64,000 nucleotides of DNA from assembly GCA_016748015.1 (NCBI GenBank), contig JAAOMT010000201.1:256224-320223 (forward strand), read 5' to 3'. The notes beneath the pieces were generated by a model. It had not been told where the DNA came from and ran no database searches. It was given only the letters and a program-made list of their open reading frames with translations. Of this stretch, positions 5,447 through 47,974 are shown piece after piece. Every line of letters begins with the position of its first letter. Position 1 is the first letter of the stretch. The DNA comes from Geosiphon pyriformis uo1 (Eukaryota; Fungi; Glomeromycota). The position numbers and the translations under genes were made by a program.

Positions 5447-6984
5447 GCAAGAGTTCAATTAGAACTAACCATTTTTATCTCTATATTTTGTCCAGAAAAG
5501 AAATTTTATAAAAAAAAATTAAATATACTTCTCAAGCAGGATGTAAAAAAAAAGAGAGGAGAAAGAAAAAGGAGTGAAAAACTTGGATAGAAGACAAAAA
5601 CAATTATATACAATATACTTGGTCTTCAAGCTAGAAAAAATTAAAAAATCTTTAGCTTATGGGACTGAACTCTTCAAAACAGAGGAGTAAACACCAGACA
5701 ACACTCAAGAGTAAAAAAAAAGACTCCTTTCAACATATTGGTTTTACAAAATTGGGAAACAATTAGATTTAAAAAACCCATACAAAGACTACAACCAGAA
5801 AACTTTTAATAAAAAAGCAATATAACAAGTAAAAAAATTCGTAAAAAGAAGCAACCTGACACTATACTACAAAGCAATATGTTAATTATATGTCACTTTC
5901 CAATATTGTCCAAACATACTATTAAAAAAGACAACAGTCAACAACATAGGACAAATGACCAATCAACAGTTCAAAAATCTACAAAAAACTATAGTTAATA
6001 TAACCATTGAACATTACACAAACAAAGTTCTATTAACAGACACAACTGATTTTGCAAAAGCTCAATATTAAAAAAGAAGAAGATAATATTACTTGAAAAA
6101 AAAAAGCTTATTAAAAAAAGAAAGAAAAATGTGACCTAAAAAAAAATATAATAAAATATAAAAGAACACAGAATAATACACAATAATATTAGATAACACG
6201 TTATAACATAGAATAATGTGTTATAATACAGGATAATACAGAATAACATGTTATAATGTAGAATAATGTGTTATAATATAGAATAATTAGTTATAATATA
6301 AAAAAACAAAGTAATAACTAACAAGAACAAATGATCTAAAGCAATCCTGTAAAATTAGAAAATATGTATATATAGCAGTAGCATTAGAAACAGAAAAGAC
6401 AGAATTCCCAGACAAAAATTTATTAGTTACTATTCCCTAGTTAAAAACCATATTATTTTAAATATTAATAAATATATTATTCAGCATTTCAAATCCAATT
6501 GCTTATTATCAACTCTAAATGTTAATAGTAATTGATACTTAAATTACATGAGAACAATAGCTCTTGATTATAGCTATTAATAGGATACTAATTTGCATTG
6601 CCTTGGCTTAATTTTTTTTATTTTATCTTCTTTTATTTTTTTGTATCTTGTTGGTGGTTTACTAAACTTCTTAAAAATTAAGTATTAAGTTATTAATGTC
6701 AAGAATTGTCTGGTAAAAGACTCCTGCAAGTGGATAGAATGTGTAAAAATTAAGGATTGCTTACCAAAGAATTGCTGACCATCAAGCTGAGAAAAAAATT
6801 GATGGAATTGTGATTCCAGAAAGCTACAAATAAAATAACATGGAAATCTCTGTTCATTATACAAAAGATTCAATCAAAACCTTCAAAATGCAAAAATCTT
6901 CAGATTACTACCATTTCATATTAATTAAGCACCAAGTTATGGGTTTGTTATTTACTCTAACTATCCAAATAATCACTTGTAACA
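5447..6984 (+). mobile_element. Gypsy 3' end: ORF3 remnant (5447-6070), PPT (~6070-6086), 3' LTR 6087-6984
   Basis: ORF3 remnant matches 32280-32875; purine tract AAAAAAGAAGAAGATAA precedes LTR; LTR ends TGTAACA at 6984. Confidence 0.8.
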
Positions 6985-12203: not shown

Positions 12204-12671
12204 ATGAGTTATAGCAGAGTACGAGATAGGTTAAGTGAATATGGTGTAAATTATATTGTTAATAATATTAAAACATCAGAAGCATGGTTACAGTTTGCAA
12301 AATATTATCCACCAAAGTATGTACGCAAGCGTTTATTAAAACTAGGATATGAAATAGATAATAGAGATTATTGGGAAAATTTTGTATTTCGTATCAAAAA
12401 TAATTTAACCAGCCACAAGCAAATAGGTAATGACCCTAAATATAGGGATTTTAAAGTTCAACTAGCATTATATAAAAAAAATTGTGCGTCATTAATTATC
12501 CAGAAGACATATCGTTTATGGAAAAAACAAATTAATTCAGCTAAAATAATCCAACATGCAGTAATTGAATGGCTTTATAGACCTGGTGGATCATTTATGA
12601 AGCAAGCCAAAGATCGATATTATCAAAATTCGAATAAGCTCCATCATAATAGCATTGGGAGTAAACAATAA
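12204..12671 (+). CDS. Hypothetical protein with two IQ-like motifs
   Basis: ASLIIQKTYRLWK and SAKIIQHAVIEW followed by LYRPGG; intronless 155 aa. Confidence 0.65.
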   Translation: MSYSRVRDRLSEYGVNYIVNNIKTSEAWLQFAKYYPPKYVRKRLLKLGYEIDNRDYWENFVFRIKNNLTSHKQIGNDPKYRDFKVQLALYKKNCASLIIQKTYRLWKKQINSAKIIQHAVIEWLYRPGGSFMKQAKDRYYQNSNKLHHNSIGSKQ

Positions 12672-12887
12672 CGAAATATACCTTAAGGAACACTTCCTCT
12701 ATGGATTGTTTCGTGATAATCAGTTAAAAGCCAGAAGATGTGGAACAGACCTGTCATTAGATGAGCTGGTTGCAAAGTTAAGCGTGATTGAGAATATCAG
12801 AAAAATAAATGATATATGCGTCTAAATTAATTATCCGAACATTAGCTGTTTTTTTCGATTAAAGATATATAATATACATTTTTGAGA

Positions 12888-13700: not shown

Positions 13701-13789
13701 ATAATATTACAGGATGCATATTATTTTGACTATAGAAGAATAGAGGAGGTAATCAGGTATTCGACAGCCTCCAGCTAATTTTAAAGAAT

Positions 13790-14464
13790 TTATTTGCTGT
13801 GATGTATATATATCTGTGATAATTTTCCTTGTTTTACTTTTGATTCTAGACATGGGCACTGATTGTTGCTAGTAGATTTTTTGACGAAAATTTCATGCAA
13901 TTGTTGAAGAGTGACATTCGGAAACAATGGTAGTCCCTCACCAGTAAACCAAAATTTCTTTACCCCTCTATCAACGAATTTTTTTATTAGCATACCTGGA
14001 TCATCTTCTAAGGGACCGTGGAATTTCTCAAACTTTCGGAGGTACACCCTTGCATGTTTATTGGCTTCTTCTGCCATTTCTTGATTAGTATAGCCAACAA
14101 TACCGATTTTTTCCTGAATTGTCGCTATATCGTCTTCTAAGCATAAAAGCAAATCAAATAATCTAATTGGTTTATCTGAAGAGACTTTATCCCTTCTAAG
14201 TTCTGCTTCTAAAACGGGATTGATATCTATACCAAGTTTCCCCTGTATAGGTATTAAATCCCCCACCAATTCTAACAACAATTCATATGAATCAGCATGT
14301 TTTTTCGCTTTCTTGCTTTCCGACACTGCCGTTTGATTTATATTACTGTTAATAACAAGTTTTTTCTGAATAGCTGTTATATCCTTTTTCTTATATAAAA
14401 ACACTTCGTATAATTGAAGAAAATTTTCACTTGGATCAGTTTTATTATTAGTATTACTCGTCAT
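13790..14464 (-). CDS. Hypothetical protein (224 aa)
   Basis: Open ATG-initiated intronless ORF with repeated DI(T/A)xIQxKL/IG helical motif. Confidence 0.6.
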   Translation of the reverse strand: MTSNTNNKTDPSENFLQLYEVFLYKKKDITAIQKKLVINSNINQTAVSESKKAKKHADSYELLLELVGDLIPIQGKLGIDINPVLEAELRRDKVSSDKPIRLFDLLLCLEDDIATIQEKIGIVGYTNQEMAEEANKHARVYLRKFEKFHGPLEDDPGMLIKKFVDRGVKKFWFTGEGLPLFPNVTLQQLHEIFVKKSTSNNQCPCLESKVKQGKLSQIYIHHSK

Positions 14465-14804
14465 GATTGTTATAATATGGTAATATAATTAATGCGGAAA
14501 ATAACGCATAAATATAAAAATTAAGTGAATATAGCAAATTCAATCTGAAAATAATTATAACCACATCGTAACTGCGAAATTACATCACGTTATAATGAGC
14601 CTCAGGGGAGCGATGTCATGTGTTTTAAATCCGCGAATCAGAGATCAGCATAGAAGTTCATGGAACATGCCAATAAAAAGCCCCTAATGGGTCATAATCT
14701 CATATATTTACACGAAAATCTTTATTTAACAAGTGATTATCTGATATATTTACATTTTAAAACCGCTAACTCTATATAATTATTTTTGCTATATAAGTAT
14801 CGAA

Positions 14805-15478
14805 TTATATCCCATAGGGTAGTGGATCCTCTGCTTTCAACCCACGTCTGGCACGCGATAAATCTGTAAAGAGTAACGATTATAAATAGCGATTTTTTAG
14901 CAATACATATAATACAATGAAAAGATTAACACGAACGTACTAGCCCATGTGAAATAATTACTTACCAATATTTCCTCGTCTTTTATCGCAAGATCTTTCT
15001 GGTATCTTGGTTTGACTTTTTTTCGGTTGGGAGAGTGTAATTCGGTTATTCAGATCTCGTACATCATTGAGATCTTGCCGAGGAATCGAAGAAAAAACAA
15101 ATCCACGTGAATCCCTCTCAATGCCGGCCTCTAGATCTTCGTATATCGACGAAAAATCGCGCAGATGATGGAAGAAGGTACTGTGAACAAAGTAAACAAT
15201 ACTGTGCCGGATCCCTCGAGTTATGGGAAAATTTCCATGAAGGAGAAGACGTGAGGAGAAAGCAACGATTTGTCGGGGCGAAGCGGAACGACAATCTGGA
15301 GTTGGGGGAACCATAATTCGCCTCCCTCGAAATCACCCAATGCGACTGAACAACAAAGAGAATTTGGCTCGTCATGTTCATCCCAATGAAAGTCACTTAT
15401 TGTATTGAAGTTAATCGCGATCATAGGGAAGACTCCGAATGACCTTGGCGCAAATGCTCCCCATTCTAGCTTTAGCAA
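14805..15478 (-). pseudogene. TET/JBP-like 2OG-Fe(II) dioxygenase, 5'-truncated and frameshifted
   Basis: HxD (FHWD), GDFEGGELWFPQL, then after a frameshift near 15274 H (LLHGN) and RxS (RHS); GT-AG intron 14965-14864 restores the last exon DLSRARRGLKAEDPLPYGI*. Confidence 0.7.
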
Positions 15479-15481
15479 TTT

Positions 15482-16984
15482 TTAAAATGGAGATGAAACA
15501 GTAGGACTCGGGTGTATATTTCGGGGTGGATGAGTATTAGCTTGTTCTAATGCCTGTATTAGTAAGCTATTATTAACGATCATGACGTTTCTTAAGGTCA
15601 ATAGTAAGCGAACGAGAGCTTTAGTATTCGATGCGTGTGGTGATAATGGAATTTCAGCGTTATCAAGATGGAAATATCTTGGTATACCACCCAGATCCTT
15701 CATAAGAACATTTAATCGCATAGTAGTGCCAGCTATTTGTATTCCAACAATCCCAAATTGATTGCCAACCGGTCTACACAGCGCATCCACAAAGCTCACT
15801 CCATCTAAAGTCTCTCTCCACAATTTCACATCATCATCCGTTTTCTTTGAATTACTACATAAAATACGTGAAGATTCAACATATAATAATTCTAAAAATT
15901 TGTCACCCCATTTCAACAGTCCCATAATGTCAGGTTTCTTTCCCATTCGTTCTCTGACTGCTCCTGCATTTCGTTGAGCCTTACTTGCTAGGCTCTGTCG
16001 TTCTGCTGTACTTAAACAGATACTACCATTATGTAGGTCCCCTAAACTCGATCGGAGCAAAGGCAGTATAATATCCGAAATATATGTTCCTTCACTTTGC
16101 TCACTACGTGATATACTCATGAATACTGGGTTACTCCATGTTTCACCACTAATGAAAAGTAAATTAGAAATATTAAAAAAATTTGCACTTCATAGACTGT
16201 ATAGCACTCTAATACTAACTGCTGAAGAATCAAAATAATACTTACAGTACACCAAGAATTCGTTCACTAGTTTCCACCAACTTATGTTCGCTTTCTTTCC
16301 ATTTTTTGTTATGAAAAATATTTCTCGTGGCTTGTGAAGTATTCGAGTTATTAAACCTACCCACAAATTCATCACACATCCTTGTAACCGATTCAGGGAT
16401 ATCGCATTTCATATTCTCCCGCGGTTCCAAAAAAACTTTCTTTTGCCTGCGCCCCAAATTTTTTATTAGGCCCGAATCGTCGGTAAGAATCATATTCGCT
16501 TTGGGATCTTGCCACGTAAGTTCTGACGGATTTATATGTTCGAGAGCTTGCCTAAGCGCTCCGTAAAGATTCGCATCAATTTCTGATCCGGGATGCTTAA
16601 TATACAAGTTCATTAACTTTCGGACAAAAGAATACCTCACTTTGATAAAATATCTGAGACATACCTCGAGCTTGTATTTTAACATTTTAATATTCGCCAC
16701 AATCTCTTCATGGCTATAATCAGGGGGTAACTCCCTCTCTATATTCAACGCTTTGAATGCTTTCAGACCTTTAATGCTGATATAACCACTTGAAATCTAT
16801 GGCAAATGCAATAATAAATTAGTACCGGTACAAGCCAACCTCACATTATATCTGTTTATATACTACGCCCGCACATGTGCGTTTTCAGAATTTAAAAATA
16901 TCACTGTTTTGGCAGATAGTCACGCACAGTCAAGGAGGAGCAAACTCTCGACATCCAGAGGATATCGCTCTTCCGAGCTGGCAT
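15482..16984 (-). CDS. Spliced gene (~400 aa) with C-terminal PD-(D/E)xK restriction-endonuclease-like domain
   Basis: Predicted exons 16984-16928, 16796-16665, 16595-16246, 16148-15482 join in frame with GTGCGT/GTATGT/GTAAGT donors and AG acceptors; motif KKPD..ELLYVESS..DDVKLWR. Confidence 0.65.
16642..16975 (-). repeat. Right arm of ~334-bp inverted repeat (partner 8637-8970)
   Basis: Direct reverse-complement match. Confidence 0.95.
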
Positions 16985-19513: not shown

Positions 19514-19640
19514 TATGTTATAATGCATTATCTAATGTTATTGCATGTTATTCTGTATCTTTCACGTTTCATCATGTTTTTCTTTAGATTATGTTTTTCT
19601 TTTTTTCTTTGATAAGCTTTTTTTTTTTAAGTAACAATAT

Positions 19641-20738
19641 TTAGGAATTATATATCAATAAATCTAAAAGAATATTCAATCAAAAAATAAAACAATAGAT
19701 TAAAGATTTCATTAGAAAAAAGACAAATTCTAGACTATACATCAAAACAATCTATTAACTACATATCATATTTCAAAATTATTCAGAAATAATATTACAC
19801 CAAGAAATAGAAACAATAACTGTTAATTAATAAAAAAAATAAACAACTCTCAATATGAAGAAATAAGAAACAAAATTGAACAAACAGTATTAAAAAAAAA
19901 AGTAATAGACTTAATTCAAAATAAAAATTTTGATGAAGCTTAATATTAAAAAAAAAAGATAATGTTATTCATAAAAAAAATACAAAAAAGAAAAACAGAT
20001 AGAAAAATAGACCAATAAAAAATAATACTTAGCAAGTAAACACAATGTCAAAAAATTATAACATATTGCTTAGCAATATGCATATTGTTAGTGAATTATA
20101 GTATACTGCTTAGCAATAAGCATATTGTTAGTAAATTATAGCACACTGCTTAGCAATGAGCATATTGTCAGAAAATCATAATATATTGCTTAGCAATAAG
20201 CACATTGTTAAAAAAAATAGGACATATTGCTTAAAAAAATAGAAGATCTTATATAATAAAAAATAGATATATATAACAAAAGTGTTAGAAACAAAAAAAA
20301 CAAAATCAATACAAACAAAATCAATAAAATCTATTAATTATCCAATACTTTTTCCTTCAAAAAATAGTTTTTTTACAAATTGAAATGAAATCAAATTACA
20401 TATCAATAAAATATCAATTATTACCTAAATCTATATTAGCATTACTTGATTAAAAAATATTAATTATATTTACTCTATCAACACTCCATGTTGATAGAAT
20501 CTAATACTTAACTATACTAAACTAATAGTTCTTGATCACAACTATTAACAGAATACTAATTTTTTATTTTTATTTTCTTTTATTTTCTTTTGTTTTATTT
20601 CTTTGTTGTTTACTAATTGATTAAAAAAATTAAGTACTAAATATTTGACATCAAAGATAGTCTGATAAAAGACCTAAAAATAAGGGTAGAAATTTAAAAA
20701 TAGCTTATTAAAAGAACATGACTTCCAAAATTAATTAG
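19641..20738 (+). mobile_element. Gypsy family A 3' end (ORF3 remnant, PPT, first part of 3' LTR 19963-20738); LTR continues at 57903-58091
   Basis: LTR starts TGTTATTC at 19963 after the purine tract; it breaks at ..AATTAG (20738) and resumes CTGACCACCATGCTG at 57903. Confidence 0.7.
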
Positions 20739-21426: not shown

Positions 21427-24400
21427 TGTTACAGGTGATTATTTGGGGTCTCAAATCAAATAACAAACTTGTAACCTGGTGCTCAAAAGCTATTTCTGAT
21501 AATGGTGATCTGAAGGATTGTTTGTTTGAAGGTTTTGGTTGTTGAGTTCTTTGTATAATAGACAAAAATTCAATAGTAGTTTATCTGTAGCTTTCCAGAA
21601 TCACAGTTCTGTCAATTTTTCTCTCGACATGGTGGCCGGCAATTCTTAATGTTAATAACTTAGTGCTTAATCTTCAATCAATTAGTAAAACAAAAAAGTA
21701 ACAACAATAAAAGAAAATAAAACAAAGAATAACAGAAAATAAAAAATAAGAAATCAGCCAAGGCAATGAATGTTAGTAATTCATCAATAGCCATGATTAA
21801 GAGCTATTGTTTCAGTGTGATTAAGTATTAATTACTATCACCATGAAGTGTTAATAGTGGAGAGTGGATTGAAATGGTGATTAATTATTTATTAATATTG
21901 TGAATGAAATGTTTTTAACTAAAGAATTCTTTCTTTTTTACTTCTAACATTATTGCTATATATACATAATTAATGTTCTACGAAATTGCTCACATTCTTG
22001 AGCAATGTGCTATGATTTCTTGAACAATGTGCCCTAATTTTCTAATATTGCTCCACATTGCTGAGTAATGTATTGTGTTTTCTGACATTGCTCTATATTG
22101 CTGAGCAATGTGTCGTGATTTCCGTTATTGCTCTATATTGCTAAGCAATGTGCTTACATGTTAAATGCTATTTGCTTATTGGTTTACTATTTTCCTATAT
22201 CTGTTTTCTTTTTATGAGTAACATTATCTTCTCCTTTTTAATATTAAGCTTTGTTGAAATCTTCATTTTGAATTAGCTCTAATACTTTTTTTTCTAGTAT
22301 TGTTTATTTAACTTTATTTTTCACATCTTCTTCTTGTACATTGTTTATTCTTCCCCATTGGTTAATAGTTATAGTTTCCATGTCAGAGTATAACAGTATT
22401 TCTAGATAGTTTTGAAATATGTTGTGCAGTTGGTAAATTGTTCTCACATATAGTGTTGAGTTTGTTTTTTTTCCAATAAATTCTTCAATTTGCTGTATTA
22501 TGTTTTGGTTAAATATTCTCTTAAATTTGTCAATATACAACTCCTGAATATTCAACTTTCAACCTAACTAATAGTAATAATATGATATTGAAAGTTGTTC
22601 TGTCTATTGCTTCCAATTCTTTTTTGTAAGTTCTTTTGTTGGTGCCATAATAGATATTTTTCTAAAAGTGTTCTTTACTTTTTCTATTATGTTATTTGAC
22701 CAGTTTTTATATTTCTTTGGTAACCACTGATATAATGTATTCTTTGTCTTTCTTTTGGTGTTTCGATAGCAAATTGTTTGATTATTAATAATAATTTCCA
22801 TGTCTAATGATTGCTGACTTAATGTCTGGAATAATTGTTGAGCTATGGTGTAAATGTGATCTGGTATTTCCATTTTTTTTTCTTGGTTGCTTTTGTCATG
22901 TATACTGTGTCTTTATATATTCTTTTATTATTCAATTTTACATGTTTGGTTTAATGATTATGATTGGTTCCAGATCTTGTGGAATCTTATCTGATTGGAC
23001 TAGTATTTGTTGTACTCCCAATTGTAGAATATTATTGGTGGATGATGATGCTATTTGGTAATATGGTTTCAGTTGATTATCATGTGCTGCTTTGGCTAAA
23101 ATTTTGTTGTCCCATCTTAATTTATAAGCTCTATTTCCAAGAATTTCTTCTATGTGAAATGGACCATCCTATTTGGGGTCAAATTTTCCACTCCATTGTT
23201 TTTCTATTTTGGTATGATGTAAAAGTACTTTGTTTCAATCTTGAATTCAACTGGTTTATCTGGTAATTGGTTATTGTGTCATTCTTTTTGCTTTTTTTGA
23301 GACTTTTGGATATTATCAGCTGTTTTTCGTCATTTGTTTTCTAGTGTTTCCATTAAGTCATATGTTCTTCTTAACAATGTTTCTTGGAAATTGGCTTCTG
23401 TTATTGGTTCAGTTAGATATGTATTGACCTCTATCTCAATTGGTAATGTTGCTGTTTTTTTATATACTAATTCAAATGGTGTTGCTTGTGTAGTATCTTG
23501 TCTTATTGTCCGATAAGCAAATAATACTGATGGTATAAACAAATCTCATTCATCTTGGTTTTCTTGACTGATTTTGGCAATTGCTTCACATAATGTTTTA
23601 TTGAATCTTTTAACTAGTCTATTGGTTTGTGAATGATATGATGATAATAATGGTCTTTTTATCTCAAATCTTTGACTTAGTTCTGTCAATGTTTTATTTA
23701 TAAAATGAGTTTTTTGATCTGATAGTAGTTTCTTTGGACATCCATGTTAACAGATCAAATCTTGATAGATGATGTTATCTGAGTAGAAAAACCAATCCAA
23801 AGTTATAAAGAAACATAACATAACACAGAATAGTGTAATAATGTTGGATAATGTGTTATAATGTAGGATAACATGTTATAATACAGGATAACACAGAATA
23901 GCACACAATAACGTAGAATAACATGTTATAACACAGGATAACACAGAATAATATGTAATAATGTCAGATAACATGTTATAACATAGGATAACTAGTGATA
24001 ACGTAGAAAAACAAAGCAATAACAGAAATAACAAAGCAATAGCTAGTGATAGTGAGACAATTGAAAGCAATCCTGTAAAACCAAAAAAATGTATAAAAAA
24101 CAAGTAGTTATAGAAGTTAGAAAAGACAGACAGATAGATAGATATAAACCTTTAGACAAAAATTAAATATCCATACCCCTTCATCATTTATTATCCTCCC
24201 TATTTTATCTTCTGAAATAAACGAATTATTAAAGAAATCAGAGTCACAAATTCATGTTCTTGAACTTCATGGAATTTATGTGAATTAACTCTTGTCTCGT
24301 ATTTTCATTCTAGGACAGATGCTCTTAGCATAACCATCTCGAATGATCAATGATTTGGACCAATCGCTCTTGATCATAGCGATTGACAATACTAATTTAT

Positions 24401-24892
24401 CTTTTCTTTTTTTTTTTTTCTTTTTTTTTTCTTTCTTATTTTGTTTGTGAAGCAGCAACATAGTAAAATTGATTGTCTGGGAATAGACTTTGTGATAGTC
24501 TGGTAAAAGAGGGAAGCTTCCCCTAAGTTTTGGATATTAACATTATCTTGTTAGCTTACCAGAAGGGCGAAAAGACAATGCCAGACTCTAATGATTCTGC
24601 TTGTTAGCTTGGAGAAGAAAGCTCACATTTACAGAAAACATTGCAATTGACAAAAAACAAACTCTGTGCCTTATAACAAAAAAACTCAACAGGTAAATTC
24701 ACATCCAGGAATAGATCTTCAGAGACTGATAATCAAGACTAAGCCAACAGAATTATACAGAAGATGCATCATCAATAATTGAGAGCACCAAACGTTACTA
24801 TTTTCCATACCCACCAAGTTTACTCATAATATTTGGTGCTCCCTGTGAGATTATAAATCCACAGAGACAGAGCACTCCAGAAATACACAAAA

Positions 24893-27800
24893 GTAGCAAC
24901 TATTAGAACAATAAGAAAGAACCACTTCTTGTACAGAAAAGCACTATTTCAGTACTTTTGAAAAGATCTAGGAATATCAAAAGAAACTACCATCACAGAA
25001 AGTGACTTTTGCAACTATATCAATGCAAAAATCAACTGCTTGTTAGACCATGCAATAGACACAAAAAGACTTGGAGAACAAATCCATCAAAGCTTACTAA
25101 GGTACTTAACAACTACCACTACACAAGCAATCACTGAAACCCTATGCATAGTTGATACAGACATTAAACACTATGTGACAAAACAATTCCCTCAAGTACA
25201 ACAACCAATAGAATCTGATCTGAAAGAATACGAATATGGATCCAATAATTCTACAACTGTCCAAGACAAATCCACAGTCAACAAGAAACCAAGGATCCTC
25301 TTTCTAACAACTCCATCATACCATCAGACACTCCAAAGTAGAATTGTATTCAACCCACCTCTGGAAACCCAGTCAGAAACACCACAAACTCCTGGAAACC
25401 CACACCCTTGAAATCAACAAAGTTGGAACAAATCACTAGAAGAATATGGATCGCTGTTTGGAAATCTTACCCCAGCAGTCAGTCAACCAGAAGGAAACAC
25501 GTCAACTTGGGAACAGCCATCAGCACAAAACCCAATAGAATCAGCATCTCCTCTGATAGAAGGAACAGCTATTCTACAACCTATTGGTTCAAGTGACAAA
25601 GAGAAACAATCAGCATTAGCACCTGGAAAACACTCAAATATGTGGACACCAATTCCCTTAAACATAACCAGTAACACCCCACCCATTAACCAGATCATGG
25701 CTTACTGGAATATTGCTAAATTGGAAAAATTCTCTAGTAAAGAAGATAACGCATATTCTTGGATTGTGGACACCGAAAAAGCAATTACCACTAATGGCTA
25801 GAACAATGACTGCACAATTTAAGCACTGCCATTTTTTCTGACTGGAACTGCCAATTTGTAGTACCAGAGCCTTGCAGAGAAGCCTATCTTCTTTACAGAG
25901 TTTAAACTCACATTTCTGCAATACATCTATAACTTTAATACACTCATCCGATTGCAAAATCAATTCAGTATAATAAAACAAAACAACCATGAAGCAGTAA
26001 CTACTTATCTTAAAAGATTCAATTAGGTCCTTTGACAAATCCTAGCCATTGAGCAGAATTATTATACCATTATGCAAGTTCTTAATCAATTTGTCAAAGG
26101 ACTAAAAAGCAGCTTCCTAAGATCCATATGACCTTGCCATCTGGCAAACCTACAAGAAACAGTCATTCTCATTCGTGATTTTGAGTTGGCCAAGCAAAAA
26201 GTGAATCATATTTAAGCCATTAATTTAGCCATTAATAAAACCTCTGACATTGATGCAAAGATAACCCAATTAAGTGAAAAATTAATTCAGAAAATTGAGG
26301 GATTTTTAGCCGGAAGCACAGAAACTTATTAACCACCACAACAGAGAGAAAATAACAACAATAGCAGATACCCATAGCAACAGAACTGTCAGCAATAGCA
26401 ACAATCTTGGAGATCCGATCCCCACAACTGTTACTACTGCCAGAAACCTGAACACATTGCTCGTAACTGCAGAAAGAAGATAATAGACCAAAATCAGGGG
26501 AACCAATACCAGCAACCCAGATATCAGCAAAGCATGGTACTCCAATATTCCATATCTCAGAATCAACTGCCCCAATACACACAACAAGTTCTGTACACTC
26601 AACCACCACCCCAGAATTATTATCAACTACCACCAATGACACAAACAATTCTTCACTATCAAACTTCCCCTTACAGCCCATTTAGACCTTGAGCCATAGA
26701 CTATAATTAGGGATGGAGGAATTCTAACAACAATCAGATGTAAACCAACAGTGGACTATTTCGACCAATCCCTTGTGGTTCTGTCCAATCTCGACCAACA
26801 CCAACTGGATACCCGAATCAAGCTTTCTATTTCAGTCTTATGGAAGACCAGGGTTTTAACAAATCTATATCTGTAAAAGGGGGGGATGTAGAACAAATTT
26901 TCCAACCTTCCAAGCAAGCAAAAAACAATATCCCACCAACCACTATTACCAAAGACACCACCCTAGCTGCCATATTTCTTTTTGACATCAATAATTTAAA
27001 CACCCATAGCCTTTTTAATGGAGCAGCCATCAATCAGAATAAACCAATAATAGTTCTATACACTGATGCCAGAGTCGGAGGAATAGACATTAAATTAATC
27101 CTAGATAATAGATTAGCTGATAGCATAATTACGAAGCAGCTCATTGACCAACTATGTCACCAAGTAGACCATGTTGCTACTGCCCAGATCATCACAGCAA
27201 ATGGAAACACAAAAACCCCAATAGGAGAAATTACAACTTCCTCTTTGAGATTAATAAAATTCAGATCCCTACCAAAGTACTCGTCATAGAAGCTACTCAA
27301 TATCAAGCTCTAGTGGGAAATAATTGGTTGTCAAAAACCAATGCTACTCTCGACTAAAACACCCAAAAACTTCAATTCATGTTCAATGAACAGTATGTCC
27401 GAGTTTTAGCTATGTGCAGACACTTTAAAACTCAACATACCAAGAAATCTTTTATTGAATTTGAAGACACACTACTGCCACCAACCATCGAGACCTATCA
27501 GGTTTTATGAGCAGATGATTATCAAACTGAACTACTCTTACCACCAACCTGGGAAGAAAAAGAAAAAGACAGAGCTAAAGAAGAGCCCTAATTGTCATCA
27601 ATAAGATACGTAACTTTGGACCAAAGAAATCTATTTTACCAACCTTCAAGACTAATATGTGTTGATTGTGGAAAGAAGCTATCTACTATGGGTGCATGTA
27701 TTGGAGACAACAAAGAATGGCCCACTGCCACCAAATACTACTGCAGATCTTGTTTACTGAAAAGATTTGGACGACCAAAATGACAAGACAAGTGGGACAA

Positions 27801-30682
27801 CACGCTGTGTCTCGCATGTGGCGAGATCCTGCCTGATGAAAAACTTTAGAATAATGTGCCTGGTAGAGGAGGAACATGCAACAAGGCTTGTCAATACACC
27901 ATATTAATCAACGATTGGGTATAAAAGAGAACTCCCATCGAGAACACTTGGAAACGAGCATTCAACAAGTTGGATGGTTATCCACATAATGACCACAAAA
28001 TCTGAAGAATAGCAAGCACCAAAGCCAAAAGTGCCATGCCCGAAGAGATACGAGAAATCAAGGATAACTTCTGGACACCCAAATATAATGAACCTAACTA
28101 TTCTGTAGACAATTTCTTTATGGATGACCCAGATGCATTTCAGAACCAATATCAAGAATTGGTCCCAACTCAAAAAGAACAAGAGCAAAGATTAGCTGAT
28201 TTAAATACCAAACTGTGCGATCACTGTTTGATCCTCTGTTATTTCCAGTACTGCAACAAATGTGATCTCATGTTCAATCTACTTCCAAGAATACTGTTTT
28301 CAATTACCAAACTACCTGAGTCTGAAGAAAAAGAGGTATTGATCACCAAAAACATGTCATTTCAAGATCCAACTGAGGATACTGAAACAGAACAGTATCT
28401 TGCATATTCCAACTTATTCAAAGAACTAGAGCTAAAATAGTACAGTGACAACGAAAAAGAAATCTGTTCCAAAAGAATGCATAATACCAATGCCAGTTTC
28501 AACCTATGATACTCTGGACAATCACCCATCATTATAGCCCCATATTCCCTTGTGAAAATAGATCTTAAAATAGCATTAGAAATTTCTGTTAGTACAATGA
28601 TACAAATTGCCTCTCAATTTAGTCTAGCCAAGAAAAAAATCAACATAAAAGAAGGAATCATTGATGCTGGTTACATAGAGAACATTATTATGATGCTACA
28701 GAACAATTTGGACAGACCCTACAAAATAGAATTACAAGAAAAGATTGTCCAAGCTATCTTCCTACCCCTAGTCAAAATACCCCAATTGACCCTAGTAACA
28801 ATTTGAGAAGAATTAAGCCTCACTGCCTAAGAAATCAACAGGTTTGGATCAAGTAGAAGAGGAAATGTACCAGTTAATTTCACAGAGAAAGACAGTGACC
28901 AAGTAGAATTTATCTATACTGACACTATTATCTCCATTCCCCATACCGACAATACATCTTCAAAGTGAATTGAAAGATCCAAGATCAAGCTCTATTATTT
29001 GAAGCCAGTTCCGAAATCTGTTTTCTAGCTAATGTTGCTAATTTATACCTACTGGCCAAAGCCCATAAACACTTCAAAATTTTCATTCACAACCTGACAG
29101 AAGATGTCATTGAAATCCCCAATGAGATCCTTGTCAGTTCCATATCCACAAATATTCAGAATCCTGAAAAACCCCAGTCCATTCCAGACTTCGCACAATT
29201 ATTTTTATTCTGCGATATTATCTCACAAATATAGAATTTGCCAAAAAAAAGTTACTTGTTTATATCAGAAGAGATCAATAAATTGAATTTAGGAAACTTA
29301 AGTACCTTACAACAAATGCAACTCAAAGTCCTTCTGAATCAGCATGCTGATGTCTTTGCCAGTGAAAATGAATTCAAACACACCAACATCATAAAGCATT
29401 AGATTGATACAAGAGACACTTGACCAATTAAGCAACAAGCTTACCATGTACTTCCATCTGGTGATAACCTAATTAAGCAAGAAATGCAATGAATGCTTGA
29501 TAATGGCTTAATTAAAGAATCGTTAAGCCCTTGGTCCTCTCCAGTAGTCCTGGTCACCAAGAAAAATGGAAAGGTACAATTCTGCGTGGATTACCAAAAA
29601 TTAAATAGCATCACACAAGAAAATAGTTATTCTACTTCTCTCATCCAAGAAATTCTGGACAATCTAGGAAAAAAGAAATAGTTCTCATTATTAGATCTAG
29701 CAAGTGGTTATTGGCAAGTTGAAATAGACCCCAAAGACAAAAGAAAAACAGCATTTATCACTCGAGACGAAAACTTCAAGTTTAACATAATGCCTTTGGA
29801 CTTTGTAATACTCCTGCCATATTTCAACACCTGATGGATGTAATATACAAAAAAATTCTTTGGAAATTAGTAGTAGTCTACCTAGATGACACAAATGTGT
29901 TCTCCAAAACATTTGATGACCATTTGCTCCATCTGCAACAAGCCTTCAAATGCCTTTGTAGTGCTGAATTGAAACTCAATCCCGAGAAGTGCTTCTTTGG
30001 AAAAACTGAGTTAAAGTTCCTAGGACATGTAATTGGCAAGGACAGAGTTAAACCCGATCCAGATAAAGTACAAAAAGTCAAGAATTTTCTAGCTCCAATT
30101 AACTTCAGAGAATTATAAGGATTTCTAAGATTGGCAGGATATTATTGTTGATTTGTCAAAAGTTTCTCGAACATCACAAAACCACTCCATCAATTGTTGT
30201 CCAAATACATACCATACTTGTGGAAAGAAGATCAACAGAAAGCATTCAACTATCTCAAGCAGTGATTGATCACATCTTCAATCCTGATCTACTTAGATTT
30301 TACTAAATGGTTCATTGTCACTATGAATGCCTTGAAAAATGCTTTAGGAGCAGTATTATCCCAAATAGGACCAGACAATAGAGAACATCTAGTTACTTAT
30401 GCCAGTCACAGCATAAGCCCAGCAGAAAAGAATTACAGCACAACAGATCTGGAATGCCTTGCCATTTATTGGGCCATACAGACTTAGAAACATTACCTCA
30501 ATCAACCATTTGACCTATATATTAATCACAAAGGACTTATTTGGTTACTTAATAATCCATAATTAGAAAGAAAATATGTAAGATGGAGTACTTATCTGCA
30601 ACAATTCTCACTCAAAGTCCATTACAAGAAAGAATCCAAGAACACCAATGCTGACAGTTTGTCAAGAATGCCACAAACTTAA
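24893..30682 (+). pseudogene. gag-PR-Cys-rich-dUTPase-RT-RNase H of family B element (degenerate)
   Basis: ORF fragments 25040-30487; dUTPase GIIDAGY..IVQAIF..GFGS; RT SPWSSPVV, VYLDD; RNase H ends NADSLSRMPQT*. Confidence 0.85.
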
Positions 30683-30692
30683 TCCCAGATCT

Positions 30693-32060
30693 ATGAACAC
30701 ATTCACTTATCAATAACTACATCAATATCTATCGACACTACATTTCAAAGAGATATTATCTCAACAGAAACAAAGTACTATAAGAAAACAAGCCCGAAAT
30801 TATTTTATTCAAGACAACCAACTATATCAACAAAAATGCCGAAACCACCCCACTCCATAATGACTAATCAAGAACAGTAAAAGAGAAACTATACTATATA
30901 GCATGCACTCAGATCCAATGTCAGGACACTTTAACAAAGATGCTAACCTTAAAAGAACACTAAATTTATACTATTGGCCAATGATATACAAAGATATTTT
31001 CGAATACATGCTTAATTGTGACACATGTCAGCAAAGAGGAGGAGCAAGATCAACAGAACCACTTTGACCCATTCCAGTTGGAAATCCATTTGATAGAATT
31101 GGGATTGATTTGGTTAATTCTTTTTCAATTACATCTAAAGAAAATCAGTATATTGCTGTAGCCGTTGATTATCTTACAAAATGGCCAGAAGCCAGAGCAA
31201 TTCAAGTGGCCAATGCCAAAACAGTAGCCAAGTTTGTACATTAAGACCTAATTTGCCAACATGGATGTCTAAAAAAATTGTTATCTGATCAAGGAACGCA
31301 TTTTGTCAATAATATGTTAACAGAATTAAACCAACAGTTTGGTATAAAACATTCTTTATCATCATCATACCACCCACAAACTAATGGACTGGTAAAATGG
31401 TTTAATCAAACACTGTGTAAAGCACTAGCAAAAATAAGTCAAGAAAACAAACAAGAATGGGACCTATTCATATCTTCAGTACTCTTTGCATACTGAACAC
31501 TAAAGCAAAATATGACACACTTCACATCATTCGAACTAGTCTATGGAAGAAAAGCTATGTTATCTATTAAACAAAAAATATTGTTCTACTCAACAAAAAC
31601 AATTACCAAAGAGAATTTTAAAGCTACTTTGTACTACAAAATGTACCAGTTAATGGAAACATTAGAAAACAATCGAAAAACAGCAGCTGATAACATTAGT
31701 AACACTCAAAAACAACAAAAAAAAAGACATAACAATTGCTTATTTGAACAACCAATAGAATTCAAGATTGAAGACCAGATACTGTTATATTGTACAAAAG
31801 CTGAGAAACAGTGGAGTGGAAAGTTCGACCCAAAGTGGGACAGTCCATTCCACATACATAAAGCTTTAGGAAATAGAGCTTACAAACTACAATTGGAAGA
31901 CAGAATTTTAAAGAAAGTAGTGCATGAAAATTGGTTAAAAATTTATTATGCAAAACAGGAATCATCATCATCAGTACCTCAACTAAGAACACAAATTTCA
32001 TTAATCAGACCAGAAGATATACCATGAAATCTGAAACCAATCATCATTATCGAAATGTAG
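30693..32060 (+). pseudogene. Integrase of family B element (degenerate)
   Basis: HHCC (MHSD..GH..CDTCQ), GIDL, SDQG, YHPQTNG, GPF-like W(D)SPFHI; no chromodomain seen. Confidence 0.9.
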
Positions 32061-32140
32061 ACAACATGCAGCAAATTAAATTGGGGAATTCAAATATATA
32101 TAGCATCTGAAAAGCAGCAAGAAACGATAGAAATTTCAAC

Positions 32141-32875
32141 ATGGATCTTTCAGATCAAATTTTAAAATTATCTAAACAATTATTTGAAACAATTCAAAAA
32201 TCAACATCTCAAATAGAAATAACAATTAATAAAAAAGAGATATGGTACAAAGATAAGAGCAGGAGAGGGGAGAACAAAAGTTCAATTAAAACTAAATGTT
32301 TTTTTTTCTACCCACCACCCAAAAGACAATGTTGGAGGAAAAATTGTTTTCAGACAGAAGGTGAAGAAGAAAAAGGCAAAGAACAAGAAAAAAATTACAA
32401 AAGAAGATACTTGGTCTCTGAACTCGAAAAAATAAAAGAAACTTTAGCTTGTAGGACCGAACTCCCTGAAACAGGAAAGTGGACACTTGACAATGCCCAG
32501 GAATGGAAAAAAAAACTTCCTTTAGCTTATTGGTTCTACAAAATTGGAGAACAGCTTGACTTGAAGACACCATACGAAGACTTCAACCAGAAAATGTTCA
32601 ACAAAGAAGCAATACAACAAGTAAAAAAATTTGTAGGGAAAAACAATCTGACTCTACATTACAAAGCAGCATACTGACTATACACCACCTTCCAATATTG
32701 CCCAAATGTACTATTGAACAGATCTATGAAAACCATAATGGTTAACAACATAGGATGAATAACCAATTAACAGTTCAAAGACCTATAAAAGACAATATTT
32801 GAGACAACAATCGAACATTACACAAACAAAGCCATGATAACAGATACATATGGTTTTGCAAGAGCTCAATTTTAA
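32141..32875 (+). pseudogene. Extra 3' ORF (ORF3, ~245 codons) of family B element, unknown function
   Basis: ATG 32141, same frame continues past decay stops to GFARAQF* abutting the PPT; homologues in five other copies. Confidence 0.75.
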
Positions 32876-35800
32876 AAAGAGGAGGATAATATTACCCAAG
32901 TAGAAAAACCAATCCAAAGTTATGAAGAAACATGACATAACACAGAATAGCGCAATAATGTTGGATAACGTGTTATAACATAGGATAATGTGTTATAACA
33001 CAGGATAACAAAGAATAGCACGCAATAACATAGAATAATGTGTTATAATACAGGATAACACAGAATAACATGTAATAATGTCAGATAATGTGTTATAACA
33101 TAGGATAACTAGCAATAATATAGAAAAACAAAGCAATAACAGAAATAACAAAGCAATAACTAGTGATAGCGAGACAATTGAAAGCAATCCTGTAAAACCA
33201 AAAAAATGTATAAAAAGCAAGTAGTTGTAGAAGTTAGAAAAGGCAGACAAATAGATAGATACAAATCTCTAGACAAGAATCAAATATCCATACCCTTTCA
33301 TCATTTTTCTCCCTATTTTATCTTCTGAAATAACCAATTATTAAAGAAATCAGAGTCATAAATTCATGTTCCTAAACTTCATGGAATTTACATGAATTAA
33401 CCCTTGTCTCATACTTTCATTTTAGGACAGATGCTCTTAGCATAACTGCCTCAAACAATCAATAATTTGGACCAATCACTCTTGATCATGGCGATTAATG
33501 ATACTAATTTATCTTTTCTTTCTTATTTTTTTTGTGGAGTGGCAACATAGTAAAATTGACTGTCTGAGAATAGACTTCATGATAGCCTGGTAAAAGAGGG
33601 AAGCTCCCTCTAAGTTTTGAATATTAACATTATCTTGTTAGCTTACCAGAAGGGTGAAAAAACAATGCCAGACTTTAATGATTGCACTCATTAGCTCGGA
33701 GAAGAAAGCTCACATTTACGGAAAACATTGTAATTAATGAAAAACAAACTCTGTGCCTTATAACAAAAGAACTCAATAGGTAAATTCACATTCAGAAATA
33801 GATCTTTAGAGACTAATAATCAAGACTAAGCCAACAAAATTATGGTAGAAGACATATCATTAATAATTGAGAGCACCAAATATTATCATTTCTCATACCC
33901 ACCAAGTTTATCCATAACAACAAATTCAGCAATGAATTCTGCATCTGCTCTTTGAATGGCTTTTGCTTCTGGCCATTTAATGAGATAATCTATAGCTACT
34001 ACAATGTATCTGTTGCTTCTGCTAGTAATTGTTAATGATCCAACTAAGTCAATTCCAATTTGATCAAATAATTGTCCCACTTTGATTGGTCTTAATGGTT
34101 TACTTAGTCTTATTCCACCTCTTCTCTAACAAGCATTACAATTCTAAACATATTGGATGATGTCTGGATACATTAATGACCAATAGTATTTTTTTCTGGT
34201 TTTTTCTATGGTTGTTTCTTTATGAAAATGTCCTGTTGCTGGATCTGAGTGCATGTTAAACAGTATTGTTTCTTTTTCAGGTTCTGTAATTACTCTGGTT
34301 GGTTGATTTGGATTTCTTTGGTTTTTCTGGTACAGTATATTTTGATAATTGATAAAATATTTTAATTGCTGTTTTATGTTGTTTTGTTCTTTTTAAGATA
34401 ATTTCTCCTTAAACAATTGGGTATTTATATAATGTTGGAGTTGTTGGTATTTTTGTATATTTATTTTTTGTTATATTTTTGTGTTGAAATGTTTTTAGAT
34501 TTGTTTTATTCGTGACAATCCATCAGCATTTCTGTTGTCTTTTCCTTTTTTATAATGTACTGTATAATTGAATAGTAAAAGTTCTATTTTCCATCTGACA
34601 TGGCAGTTGTCTCTGAATTCTTGTTTCTGAATTGAAGTCCATCCTTTGTGATTAGTATACACCTCAAACTTTTGGTTTAAGTATTCTCTCCATTTGATAA
34701 CAGCCCAATAGATTGCTAAGTGTTCTAGTGCTGAAGTTTTATAGTTCTTTTCAGCTGGACTTAAGCTTCTACTGGCATAAGCTACTGGATGTTCTTTTTC
34801 ATCTGGTTTTTTCTGTGATAGTATGGCTCCTAATACTTGGCCTGATGCATTGGTGGTAATGATAAATGGTTTGTTGTGGTCTGAATACATCAACACTGGA
34901 GCTTAAATAAGCTTCTGTCTCAGTGTGTTAAATGCTTTTTGTTGAGCTTTTGTCCATTCATACTTGACATTCTTAGTTTGTAGATAATAAAGCAGCTGAG
35001 CCAGTTTAGAAAAGTCCTTGATAAAACAATGATAGTAGTCTGCAAATCCCAAAAATGCTCTTAATTCCATCAAATTGGTTGGTACTGAAAAGTTCTTTAC
35101 TATGGCAATCTTATCTGAATCTGTTTTTATACTATATTTGCTTACAACATGTCCCAAAAACTTGAGTTCATTTTTTTCAAAAAAATATTTAGTTGCATTT
35201 AGTTGCAATCCGGCTCTTCTGAGTCTTTCAAATACTTGTTAGAGATAATGCAGATGATTATTGAATATTTTTGAGAACACATTGATATCATCCAAGTATA
35301 TGACTACTGATTTTCATAACAGTCTAGTATAGAAAATACCCATAAGCCATTGAAATATTGCTGGAGTATTTATTAAGCCAAATAATATTACTTCAAATTT
35401 GAAATTCTCTTTTTGTGTAGTGAAAGCTGTTTTTTCTTTATCTTCTGGTTTTATAGCTACTTTCCAGTAACTGCTGTCTAGATCTAATGTTGAGAATCAT
35501 TTTTTTCCTCCAAAAGTGTCAAACAGCTCTTGAATCTTTGGAGTTGGGTAGCTGTCTCCTTTTGTTACTCCATTCAATTTCCAGTAGTTTACACAAAAAC
35601 GGATTTTTTCATTTTTCTTCTGGACTAGTACCACTGGTAATGACCATGGGCTCATTAATGGCTGAATTAGCCCATTGTCAAGCATTTGATTGATTTCTTG
35701 ACGAATGATTTTATGGCTGGCTGGTGGTACTCTGTATGCTCTTTGTTTAATTGGCATTGTATCTCCAGTCTTGATTTGATGTTAGATAATATCAGTTCTG

Positions 35801-37359: not shown

Positions 37360-40300
37360 TGTTATAGATGATTATTTAAGATCTTAAATCAAATAACAAA
37401 TCTGTAACTTGGTGCTCAATATCTTAACAATGCTGGTGATACTAGTACATTGGTTATATCTAAAAGTTTTAGAGTTGAGTCCTTTGTATAATAGACAGAG
37501 ATTTAAATGATGGCTTTATCCATAGCTTCCCAAAACTGCAGTTTTATCAAATTTCTTTCTTAGCATGGTGGCTGGTAATCTTTCTGGTAAGCTATCCTCA
37601 AATTTATAAGTGTTCTATCTTTGTTTCACAGGTCTTTTACCAGTCCCTATGATGTCTGTATCTCAGCACTTAATCTTTAATAAATTTTAGTAAAACCCAA
37701 GAAATAACAAAAAAAAATAAAAAAAAATAAAAAAAAATAAAAAATTTTAACAAAAAGCAATTGCAAGTTAATATCCTGTTAATAGCCATGATCAAGAGCT
37801 ATTGTTCCAGTATAATTAGGTATCAAGTACTATCAACATGAAGTGTTAATAGTGGAGAGTGTATTAAAATGGCAAATAATTATTTATTGATATTTATGAA
37901 TAGAAGATTGCTTAGATCAAAACTAAACTGAGAGGTCTGTTCTTTTTTCTTCTAATGCTATTGCTATATATACATAATTTGGGTTCTACAAGATCACTCA
38001 CATTCTCGAACAATGTGCTATAATTTTTCAAGCAATGCTCACATTGTTGAGCAATGTGCTGTATTTTTTTGACATTGCTTTATATTGCTAAGCAATGTGC
38101 CATGATTTCTGACATTGTTCCACATTGCTGAGCAATATGCCATGATTTCTAATATTACTCTACATTGCTGAGCAATGTGCTCGCATGTTACTACTACTCA
38201 CTTATTAGTCGACTATTTTTTTATATATTTGTTTTCTTTTTATAAGTAACATTATCTCTTCTTTTTTAATATTGAGCTCTGTTGAAATCTTTGTTTTGAA
38301 TTAGTTCTAATACTTCTTTTTCAAGTATTGTTTGTTCAACTCTGTTTCTCACATCTTCTACTTGTGTATTGTTTATTTTTCTCCATTGGTTAATGGTAAT
38401 GACTTTCATGTCCGAGTGTAACAGTATTTCTAAATAGTTCCAAAATATGTTGTATAGTCAATACATTGTTTTAATATGTAATGTTGAATTTGTTTTCTTT
38501 CTGATAAATTCTTCAATTTGTTGTATTATGTCTTGGTTAAATATTTTTTTAGATTTGTCGATATACAACTCCTAAATATTCAACTTCTGACCTAACTGGT
38601 AGTAACAGTATAATATTGGAAGTTGTTCTGTTTATTGTTTCTAATTCTCTTTAGTGAGTTTTTCTGTTGGTGTCATCATAGGTATTGTCCCAAAAGTGTT
38701 CTTTACTTTTTCTATTATCTTCTCTGACCAGTTTTTATCATTCTTTGATAACCATTAATATGGTATGTTCTTTGTCTTTCTTTTGGTTTTTTGATAGCAA
38801 ATTGTTTGGTTGTTAATGATAATTTCCATGTTTAACTGTTGTTGACTTAAGGCCTGGAACAGTTGTTGAGCTATAGTGTGAATATGATCTGGTATTTCTA
38901 TTTTCTTGGTTGCTTTTGTTGCGTGTATTGTGCCTTTATATACTCTTTTGGGTTGTTTGATTTGACGTGTTTGGTTCGATAATTATGATTGGTTTCAGAT
39001 CTCATGGAATCTCATCTGGTTGAACTAGTATTCTTTGTACTCCTAGTTGTAGAATGTTATTAGTGAATGATGATGCTATCTGGTGATATTGTTTTAGTCG
39101 ATCACCATGTGCTGCTTTGGCTAAGATTTTGTTGTCTCATCTTAATTTATAAGCTCCATTTCCAAGAATTTCTTCTATGTGAAATGGTCTATCTCATTTG
39201 GGGTCAAATTTTCCACTCCATTGTTTTTCCACTTTAGTACAATGTAGAAGTACTTTGTCTCCAATCTTGAATTTAACTGGTTTGTCTGATAGTTGGTTAT
39301 CATGTCTCTTTTTTTGTTTTTCTTGTGACTTTTAAATGTTATCAGCTGCTCTTTGTCACTTGTTTTCTAGAGTTTCCATCAAGTCATATGTTCTTCTTAG
39401 CAATGTTTCTTGAAAATTGTCTTCAGTTATTGGTTCTGTTGGATATGACTTGACTTCTATCTCAACTGGTAATATTGCTGTTCTACTGTAGACTAATTCA
39501 AATAGTGTTGCTTGTGTAGTGTTTTGTTTCATTGTTTAATAAGCAAATAATACTGATGGTATAATCAAGTCTTATTTGTCCTGGTTTTTTTGGCTGATTT
39601 TGGCAATGGCTTCACACAATGTTCTGTTAAACCTTTCTACTAATCCATTTGTTTGTGGATGATATGGTGATGATAATGGTCTTTTGATTCCAAATCTTTG
39701 ACTTAATTCTGTCAATGTTCTGTTTACAAAGTGGATTCCTTGATCTGATAGTAGTTATTTTGGACATCTATGTTGACAGATCAAATCTTGATGAATGAAT
39801 TTGGTAACGGATTCTGCGTCTGCTCTTTGAATTGTTTTTGCTTCTGGCCATTTAGTAAGATAGTCCATGGCTATTGCAATATATCTGTTGCCTCTGCTAG
39901 TGATTGTTAGTGGTCTGACTAAGTCAATTCCAATGTGATTAAATAGTTGTCCCACTTTAATTGGTCTTAATGGTTCACTGGGTTTTGTTCCTTCTCTTCT
40001 TTGACAAACATTACAATTTTGAACATATTAGATAATGTTTGAATACATTAATGACCAATAGTATCTTTTTCTAATTCTTTTCATGATTGCTTCTTTATAA
40101 AAATGTTCTGTTGTTGGATCTGAGTGCATATTGAATAATATTGTCTCTTTTTCTGGTTCTGTGATTACTCTGGTTGGTTGATCTGGATTTTTTCTGTTCT
40201 TCTGGTAAAGTATATTTTGATGATTGATAAAATATTTTGATTGTTGTTTTATGTTCCTTTGTTCTTTTCGAGATAATTTTTCCTGAAACAAATGGGTATT

Positions 40301-46300: not shown

Positions 46301-46451
46301 AAAGTTTTTCTCACTGATTCAGTGTTTACTGATGTCCCTAACAAATAGGCAATTCTATTGTTAACATAAAAATTGAAGGCTGATTCTGCTAATATATGAT
46401 TATGATTTAATTTCAAGTGTTGACAGTAGTGTTGAAATAAGGATTTTGCGA
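37360..46451 (-). mobile_element. Second Gypsy family A element: 3' LTR 37360-38251, internal to 46451, resumes 56629-56732
   Basis: PPT after 38251; ORF3, integrase, RT/RNase H ORF 40466-41560, dUTPase 42131-42595, gag fragments 44668-46451. Confidence 0.9.
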
Positions 46452-47341
46452 TATTACAGGTGATTATTTCTGCTGTCAAACCAAATAACAAACCCATAAC
46501 TTGGTGCTCAAAGCTAATTGCAGTTGCTATTGATCTGAAGATTTAGTATCTGAAGGTTTTGGTTGAGTTCTTTGTATAATGGATAGAGATTCAAATGGTG
46601 TCGATAATAGATGTATCCTTCCAAGAGTTTTCCTAATTTCTTTCTCAGTGTGATGGCTGGATTTAGTCTGGTAGTCGTGCCTTTCTGGTAAGCTATCCGA
46701 TAATATATATATAAAATCTTACTCTTATTTTTGGGTCTTTTACCAGGCTATTCTTAACGTCAATAACTCAGCACTTAATCTTTTAATCAATTAGTATACA
46801 ATAACAAAATCAAAAATGGAAAAAATTGAAATAAATAAAAAATAAAAATAAAGAAAGTAAAGAAAATAAGCCAAGGCAATTTGGTCTGTTAGTATCTCGT
46901 CAATAGCCGTGATCAAGAGCTATTGTTCCAGTGTGGTTAAGTATCAATTACTATCAACATGAAGTGTTGATAGTGGAGAGTGAATTAAGATATGGAATGA
47001 TTATTTATTTAATGATTAGTTTCTTGGCTAAGGATTCTGTGGTATTGATTCTGTCTTTTTTGTTTCTAATACTACTGCTATATATACATAATTGAGATTC
47101 CTCAATTTTTCGATTCTTTACGACAAGAATCCTGGAATTCCTGGAATCCTGCGAGTCCTTTGAGAGGAATCCTGGAATTCTGGAATTCTGCAATTCCTCA
47201 TTGAGAATCCTGAAATTCCTGGAATCCTGCAATTCCTAAGAGGAATCCTAGAATTTCACATTTACTATGCTTACTTCTGATTGGCTAATAATTATGCTAA
47301 TATAATTCCTATATTTCTATGAGTAACATTATTCCCTCCTT

Positions 47342-47974
47342 TTAATATTGAGCTCTATTGAAATCTAACTCATGTAATTCCCTCTCTTGAAGTATTTCCT
47401 GGATTTTGTTTTTGAGAATTACTTGTGTTATTTGGGTCTGTAATTCTTCAAATTGAGTATTGGTGATTTTTCCCAATTGATTACTAGTCACCATATCTAT
47501 TTCTCTGTTGAGCAATATTTCTGGTTTATTCTAAAATGCTGTGTGTATTCGGTATATGGCTCGGGCTTGTGTGAATAAGTTGTTCTTTCCCAAAGAATGT
47601 TCTAATTGTTGTAGTATTCTTTTGTCAAATAATTGCTTTGTTTTATCTGTATATAGATTCTGGATATTTATGTGTTGTCCCAAGTAAAAATAACAATAGT
47701 TTCATGGAAATTGTTGTATCCACTAATTCCAAGTTTCTTTAGTCAACTCTTGATATAGTGACTCTTTTGTCAATTCTTTGATTATTGCTAATTTTACTTT
47801 CACAATGATTTTGTCCACTGTATTTTCAGTTTTTTTTTGTGTTCTGAGTTGTAATGTCTTTCTAGTATCTTGATATCGAATAGTTTGTTGATTGATTGTA
47901 ATCTCCATTTTCTGGTGTTGGATTAATTGAAAGAGTTATTGTACTAGTGAGTGAATGTTGTCTGTAATTTCCAT
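47342..47974 (-). pseudogene. ORF3 of best-preserved family A element
   Basis: ATG 47974 to TAA 47342 (DFNRAQY*); TATATAAA at 48015-48008. Confidence 0.7.

Follow-up and report, generated by a model that had tools for sequence, protein, structure and literature searches.

Our analysis of a 64,000-nucleotide stretch of Geosiphon pyriformis DNA (the window) indicates that its Ty3/Gypsy retrotransposons carry an accessory gene, ORF3, which lies between integrase and the polypurine tract (PPT) and which is under purifying selection, as integrase is. The preliminary description of this DNA had taken ORF3 for an accessory gene rather than an env gene, and dN/dS below the null, together with the absence of a membrane segment, bears this out. 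Moreover, judging from the sequence upstream, ORF3 is plausibly transcribed from a TATA promoter of its own. We propose, tentatively and with somewhat less than even confidence, that this selected and TATA-transcribed gene encodes a soluble DNA-binding protein acting on the repeat array of its own LTR.

The host elements and their three cistrons

The window holds LTR retrotransposons that are decayed and inserted into one another, and its CpG content is low (o/e 0.34); in the genome as a whole, LTR elements make up 41% (PMC11952901). Pfam domains in the window follow the Ty3/Gypsy order, namely gag, aspartyl protease, dUTPase, RT, RNase H, integrase and SH3, and the ORF3-bearing elements are nested, dUTPase-bearing Ty3/Gypsy elements: they have the protease, RT, RNase H, integrase order of that group, TG...CA LTR ends, a primer-binding site (PBS), a PPT and a short target-site duplication. 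Their layout is LTR, ORF1, ORF2 (integrase-SH3), ORF3, PPT, LTR, where ORF1 contains gag, protease, a Cys-rich region, dUTPase, RT and RNase H. The main features of element A, which serves as our reference, are the following; elements C and D lie on the minus strand.

23773-33919, plus strand: element A, LTRs 11% diverged, nested in element B
23773..24831, plus strand: 5' LTR of element A, followed by a PBS-like site at 24834
30693..32060, plus strand: integrase-SH3 of element A, an ORF of its own, decayed, with its start 10 nt past the stop of RNase H (30680-30682)
32095..32102, plus strand: ORF3 TATA box of element A, presumed promoter, 46 nt before the ATG
32855..32870, plus strand: conserved DNA element before the PPT, read as FARAQF in element A and as SQELNL in distant members
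32874..32886, plus strand: PPT, overlapping the ORF3 stop
32890..33919, plus strand: 3' LTR of element A, 11% diverged from the 5' LTR
32963..33160, plus strand: U3 array of element A, built of palindromes of 10 bp and preceding the LTR TATA (33209)

The 4-bp target-site duplications (23769-23772 with 33920-33923, and 56629-56632 with 46447-46450) both seem once to have contained CG, and their copies appear to agree if C-to-T decay is allowed. Elements A and D sit in coding parts of related elements. A PBS-like word, TGGTGCTC, recurs just after the 5' LTRs (24834-24843, about 55750 and about 56730, the latter two on the minus strand). Within ORF1, on the minus strand, the Cys-rich region at about 52300-52700, between protease and dUTPase, has several CxxC pairs and acidic flanks and no Pfam match, and the region between dUTPase and RT at about 51000-51260 resembles, by eye, a degenerate second copy of a dUTPase-like domain. 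Immediately before RT there is a weak match to a spumavirus protease (E 0.002).

In one respect the elements depart from the usual Ty3/Gypsy plan, since integrase is not part of a Pol polyprotein but has its own ORF in all five elements compared, namely A, B, C, D and the metagenome locus L001. In each of them RNase H ends at a TAA just past an NAD.L.R motif, and integrase starts 10, 30, 30, 62 and 24 nt after this stop, respectively, as counted by hand (junctions at 30680-30695, about 34495, about 40370 and about 49474, and at 772-801 of L001). The phase of integrase relative to the stop varies while the stop itself is conserved in 5/5; the integrase starts of B and C have decayed to ATA. Because integrase is a separate ORF, ORF3 is the third of three cistrons.

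The six ORF3 remnants listed in the preliminary description are real, every site matching ORF3 queries or the ORF3 profile:

32141..32875, plus strand: ORF3 of element A, 244 codons, 4 in-frame stops, no frameshift
22234..22873, minus strand: ORF3 of element B, TATA at 22919, 6 stops including the terminal one, no frameshift
38266..38901, minus strand: ORF3 of element C, TATA at 38942, 5 stops, no frameshift, start decayed to ATA
47342..47974, minus strand: ORF3 of element D, TATA at 48015, 4 stops, no frameshift
5571..6070, plus strand: ORF3 remnant E, A-type, C-terminal part, with the 5' part frameshifted
19636..19950, plus strand: ORF3 remnant F, B/C-type, C-terminal part

The damage to copies A-D thus consists of nonsense changes alone. 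In alignment, ORF3 of A is 28-30% identical to those of B, C and D, and the internal motifs described earlier are present. Intact annotated Geosiphon proteins are known for each clade (P0005, P0042 and P0043); P0005 is 79% identical to ORF3 of A over its full length and P0043 is 90% identical to ORF3 of D.

Two other parts of the window stand apart from these elements. A block at 8637-16975 shows no CpG loss (o/e 0.92), is bounded by 334-bp inverted repeats that are 99% identical and adjoins a 20-N gap; by eye, some of its ORFs look like a primase-like, a tyrosine-recombinase-like and an F-box/LRR protein. A word at its right flank resembles what we take to be a transposase-library adapter end, so that the inverted structure may partly be an assembly artefact. 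A separate repeat family occupies 14-3950 and 58939-59900, with minus-strand ORFs of 176-242 aa that give no meaningful Pfam match and no ORF3 match.

Selection on ORF3 and its distribution

A dN/dS comparison between families, proposed in the preliminary description, finds purifying selection. For five ORF3 pairs, aligned as nucleotides without regard to frame, dN/dS is 0.31, 0.33, 0.38, 0.28 and 0.24, and all five values lie below the medians, 0.47-0.79, of a null in which substitutions are permuted with their spectrum preserved; these five pairs include none of A with B, C or D. Permutations as low as the observed value number 24 of 1000 for the C/B pair and 0 of 1000 for each other pair. 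Protein-guided alignments of all six pairs among A-D give 0.21-0.61, those of A with B, C and D lying at 0.33-0.61. For comparison, integrase tails give 0.26-0.34 and RT-RNase H gives 0.19, while LTR control frames (n=3) have neutral ratios. Second codon positions of ORF3 are the least changed. Could the frame nevertheless be a by-product of conserved non-coding DNA? This holds for the last six codons only. For the body of ORF3 the permutation test refutes it, the second positions are against it, and so is protein similarity that reaches members merely 22-37% identical; to the frame as a whole being such a by-product we give next to no credence.

The tail is the exception. L001 and the six window copies alike conserve the DNA that precedes the PPT, yet it is read in different frames: as FARAQF followed by the stop in A, while in L001 the protein reads SQELNLEEKIMLP and runs into the LTR, with FAGAQ appearing in another frame. 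The FARAQF-type tail occurs in 73 of 235 proteins, and six proteins have the L001-type tail. The terminal F..AQY/F, earlier considered an ORF3 protein motif, is therefore a cis element of the DNA.

Where else does ORF3 occur? All 37 matches to a search with the A protein are hypothetical proteins of Geosiphon pyriformis, as are all 120 matches listed of 169 to a profile of the four copies; one Geosiphon match is 99% identical over 37% of the query. In a profile search of 1.84 billion representatives there are 101 matches at E <= 0.001, and the nine that were looked up are seven Geosiphon proteins and two metagenome proteins (P0176 and P0185). A wider ORF3 profile gives 33 matches, 32 of them from Geosiphon. 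A metagenome scan contains at least two ORF3 loci among 592 pattern matches listed. One is L001, with the order RNase H, stop, integrase, 316-nt spacer, intact ORF3, PPT and LTR start; in the other, L002, the tail of integrase is followed by a long spacer and then the start of ORF3. At least 120 'hypothetical proteins' in the Geosiphon annotation are thus pieces of the ORF3 transposon gene. In a partial coverage of the literature, by title and abstract, we found no description of ORF3 or of a separate integrase ORF in Glomeromycota, and the accessible part of PMC3248453 does not discuss extra ORFs.

The ORF3 protein and the U3 arrays

The preliminary description had seen no signal peptide or transmembrane segment in ORF3, and the proteins agree with it: in 12/12 the best 19-residue Kyte-Doolittle mean is 0.27-1.29, and the usual transmembrane threshold is 1.6. 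The sense orientation at the env position would speak for a protein that is env-like or a small membrane fusogen, but this is very improbable, as all 12 lack both the hydrophobic segment and the signal peptide that an env requires, the predicted structure is compact, soluble and helical, and the gp120/gp160 rows reach only E 0.57 and 0.92. The net charge of ORF3 varies (pI 5.4 to 9.7), which counts against the proposed DNA-binding role.

In the model of the full protein (pLDDT 74.5), a helix-strand-strand start of low confidence is joined by a basic, disordered linker to a helical core; modelled alone, the core is confidently predicted as seven helices (pLDDT 92, pTM 0.86). A Foldseek comparison, also suggested earlier, was run on the ORF3 models and finds no match in PDB or BFVD at E <= 0.001, which is not proof of a new fold. 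A VIA search with the full model yields no Z >= 5. For the core against 48,161 chains, the best Z is 5.2, where about 13 is the level counted meaningful for helical proteins, and it is tied between a PNPase helical domain (rmsd 2.1 over 62 residues) and the Spo0J DNA-binding domain (rmsd 4.4 over 91 residues, spanning the whole core). KorB (Z 4.2, rmsd 4.7, 95 residues) and ParB (Z 3.9, rmsd 5.5, 89 residues) are lower. The predicted core therefore bears a weak resemblance to a ParB-type DNA-binding domain. The helix-turn-helix domains of ParB, Spo0J and KorB overlap it over its full length, weakly (Z 3.9-5.2), but the rmsd is 4.4-5.5, identity is 11-12%, ORF3 has no ParB N-terminal domain and there is no profile match: a profile comparison with 52 KorB domains, in which the profile was shallow (Neff 2), scores 1.5 where block shuffles score up to 6.6.

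Family searches give little else. Pfam scans of 4, 12 and 23 proteins find no family common to the members at a meaningful level, nor does Tas/Bel1 appear among the matches listed for them; DUF1016_N matches one of 12 members at E 0.037, with nothing against E. coli YhcG, and was not confirmed, and a Glypican match (E 3e-5 in one of 12) was treated as noise. PHROGs contain no family common to ORF3 members, phage genomes have no ORF3 match, and PDB sequences give a best E of 0.11 in one search and no match in another. An Atlas feature search with P0005 has no usable match; with P0185 the first match, which we regard as a lead, is a Mucoromycota cluster (0.94, 176 of 256 features, 98 members).

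What might such a protein act on? Immediately before the LTR TATA lies a palindromic array that differs from clade to clade, with 10-bp units in A and E, 20/40-bp units in B, C and F and 17/38-bp units in D (further arrays at 22038-22151, 37997-38181 and 47126-47255). The window copies show strong CpG loss, and the units are apparent CpG-decayed palindromes with a CGCG core common across families; a deamination product of CGCG stands in 16 of the 19 ATAA-NNNN-TTAT sites of A-type LTRs. This core resembles MluI cell-cycle boxes, and the units could be sites of host cell-cycle factors (MBF/SBF or E2F). Between D and B/C, DNA identity is 81-83% in integrase and 75-78% in the LTR behind the TATA, and it is 63-64% in ORF3 and 57-59% in U3 (shuffles 57 and 49-50). 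Set against integrase, these values imply that ORF3 and U3 turn over fast together. However, ORF3 adjoins the 3' LTR, so that linkage alone would make the two travel together. An own palindromic array beside each ORF3 clade nevertheless suggests that ORF3 may be a self-regulator.

Expression and possible role of ORF3

As had been described before, TATATA(T/A) precedes the intact ORF3 5' ends, in 4/4 cases: it starts at 32095 (A), 22919 (B), 38942 (C) and 48015 (D), which is 46, 46, 41 and 41 nt before the start. As background, 9 TATAWAW occur in the internal sequence read in sense (21,863 nt), a chance of about 0.7% for any 16-nt window, and in element D the ORF3 TATA is the sole such site in 8,422 nt; the whole AT-rich window holds 228 such words on both strands. 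Since copies A-D share ancestry, the four cases are not independent tests. The ORF3 boxes resemble the LTR TATA boxes of the same elements. In L001 a TATAAAT lies about 126 nt and a TATAAT about 24 nt upstream of ORF3, and L002 has a TATAAAG about 56 nt before the presumed start of its ORF3. The constant distance is thus a trait of the Geosiphon clades and is not clade-wide.

ORF3 could instead be expressed from RNA that starts in the LTR, through splicing or reinitiation, with the TATA-like word incidental. We consider this quite unlikely, but the route stays viable because integrase, separate and downstream of a conserved stop in 5/5 elements, already requires some way of expressing a downstream ORF. 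The integrase ORF has no fixed-distance TATA in the two elements checked. Favouring this route are also the deviating TATA spacing of L001 and L002 and PMC5408684, by which ORF3s usually come from spliced messages. Against this route, none of the four integrase-ORF3 spacers contains a CTRAY branch point or a pyrimidine tract (pyrimidine fraction 0.32-0.40), and the TATA distance is near-fixed in three clades although the spacers otherwise differ. Simple read-through of the integrase stop is excluded, since the gaps from that stop to the ATG (80, 64, 34 and 54 nt, the stop of C being uncertain) fall in different phases.

If ORF3 is transcribed from its own promoter, a short transcript would start behind the internal TATA and end in the 3' LTR, its protein would bind the CpG-rich U3 array of its own family, and binding would activate the LTR or shield it from methylation, much as foamy-virus Tas or plant VANC does. 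A motif common to U3 and the 200 nt before the ORF3 TATA would fit, but none stands above background in three of three elements; the longest common word is 8-9 nt, within background, in copies that are decayed. The other possibility that we weigh, a real one that we nonetheless doubt, is that ORF3 acts on RNA or protein, in particle assembly, RNA export or suppression of small-RNA silencing, and that the U3 arrays are host-factor sites. The selection evidence fits such a role equally, the CGCG core is common to U3 units across families, the PNPase domain among the best fold matches is RNA-related, and 10.1101/2021.03.30.436303 reports small RNAs from Gypsy elements of a related fungus. The Atlas leads to a closterovirus coat protein (0.93) and a phage translation repressor (0.90) point the same way, but with 156 and 123 of 256 features they lie below the 170 level and recognition is below threshold, and there is no viral fold match at E <= 0.001. 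The earlier suggestion of a regulatory accessory protein stands as far as a real, selected, non-env gene is concerned, and loses its terminal motif; an anti-silencing or regulatory role is indicated indirectly, by the U3 arrays and the weak fold lead.

How does ORF3 compare with known systems? ORF3 belongs with the sense additional ORFs of Gypsy elements and is a member of neither Tas nor VANC. Like the aORF-3S of the plant elements Athila and Bagy2 (PMC7264820), it is a sense ORF between pol and the 3' LTR that is retained across copies, and it is selected; those ORFs resemble env, and some have transmembrane segments and a spliced mRNA, whereas ORF3 is soluble, fungal, of no known family and directly preceded by a TATA. 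In foamy virus (PMC3185757) an internal promoter near the 3' end drives an accessory gene, and an action on U3 is what we propose for ORF3. Foamy virus, however, is a retrovirus with env, its Tas binds both promoters, and ORF3 has neither a sequence family match to Tas nor a motif common to U3 and its upstream region. VANC of Arabidopsis VANDAL (PMC5735166) likewise pairs an accessory protein with tandem repeats that vary between families in a methylating host. ORF3 has such family-specific repeats varying with the protein, a pattern that linkage alone could yield, but VANC comes from plant DNA transposons and has no detected homology to it. The ORF3s of bdelloid rotifer LTR elements (PMC5408684) are non-env, follow pol and occur in dUTPase-bearing lineages, as here; they are recognisable enzymes or membrane proteins made from spliced messages, unlike the fungal ORF3. 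The TRP28 ORFs of Retand (PMC11963269) also follow pol and are predicted DNA-binding regulators, but they are plant-specific and antisense, and the fungal ORF3 is sense.

More generally, the elements may belong to a three-cistron Gypsy clade of early-diverging fungi, laid out as gag-pol without integrase, a separate integrase and a promoter-bearing ORF3, in which a ParB-like ORF3 would recognise its own methylation-prone U3 as a transactivator or anti-silencer convergent with Tas and VANC. We consider this wider reading unlikely as a whole. If true, it could help to explain the LTR burst in Geosiphon. Extra ORFs of fungal elements have barely been studied, and a selected third gene with a candidate promoter of its own offers a testable route by which such elements may escape silencing.
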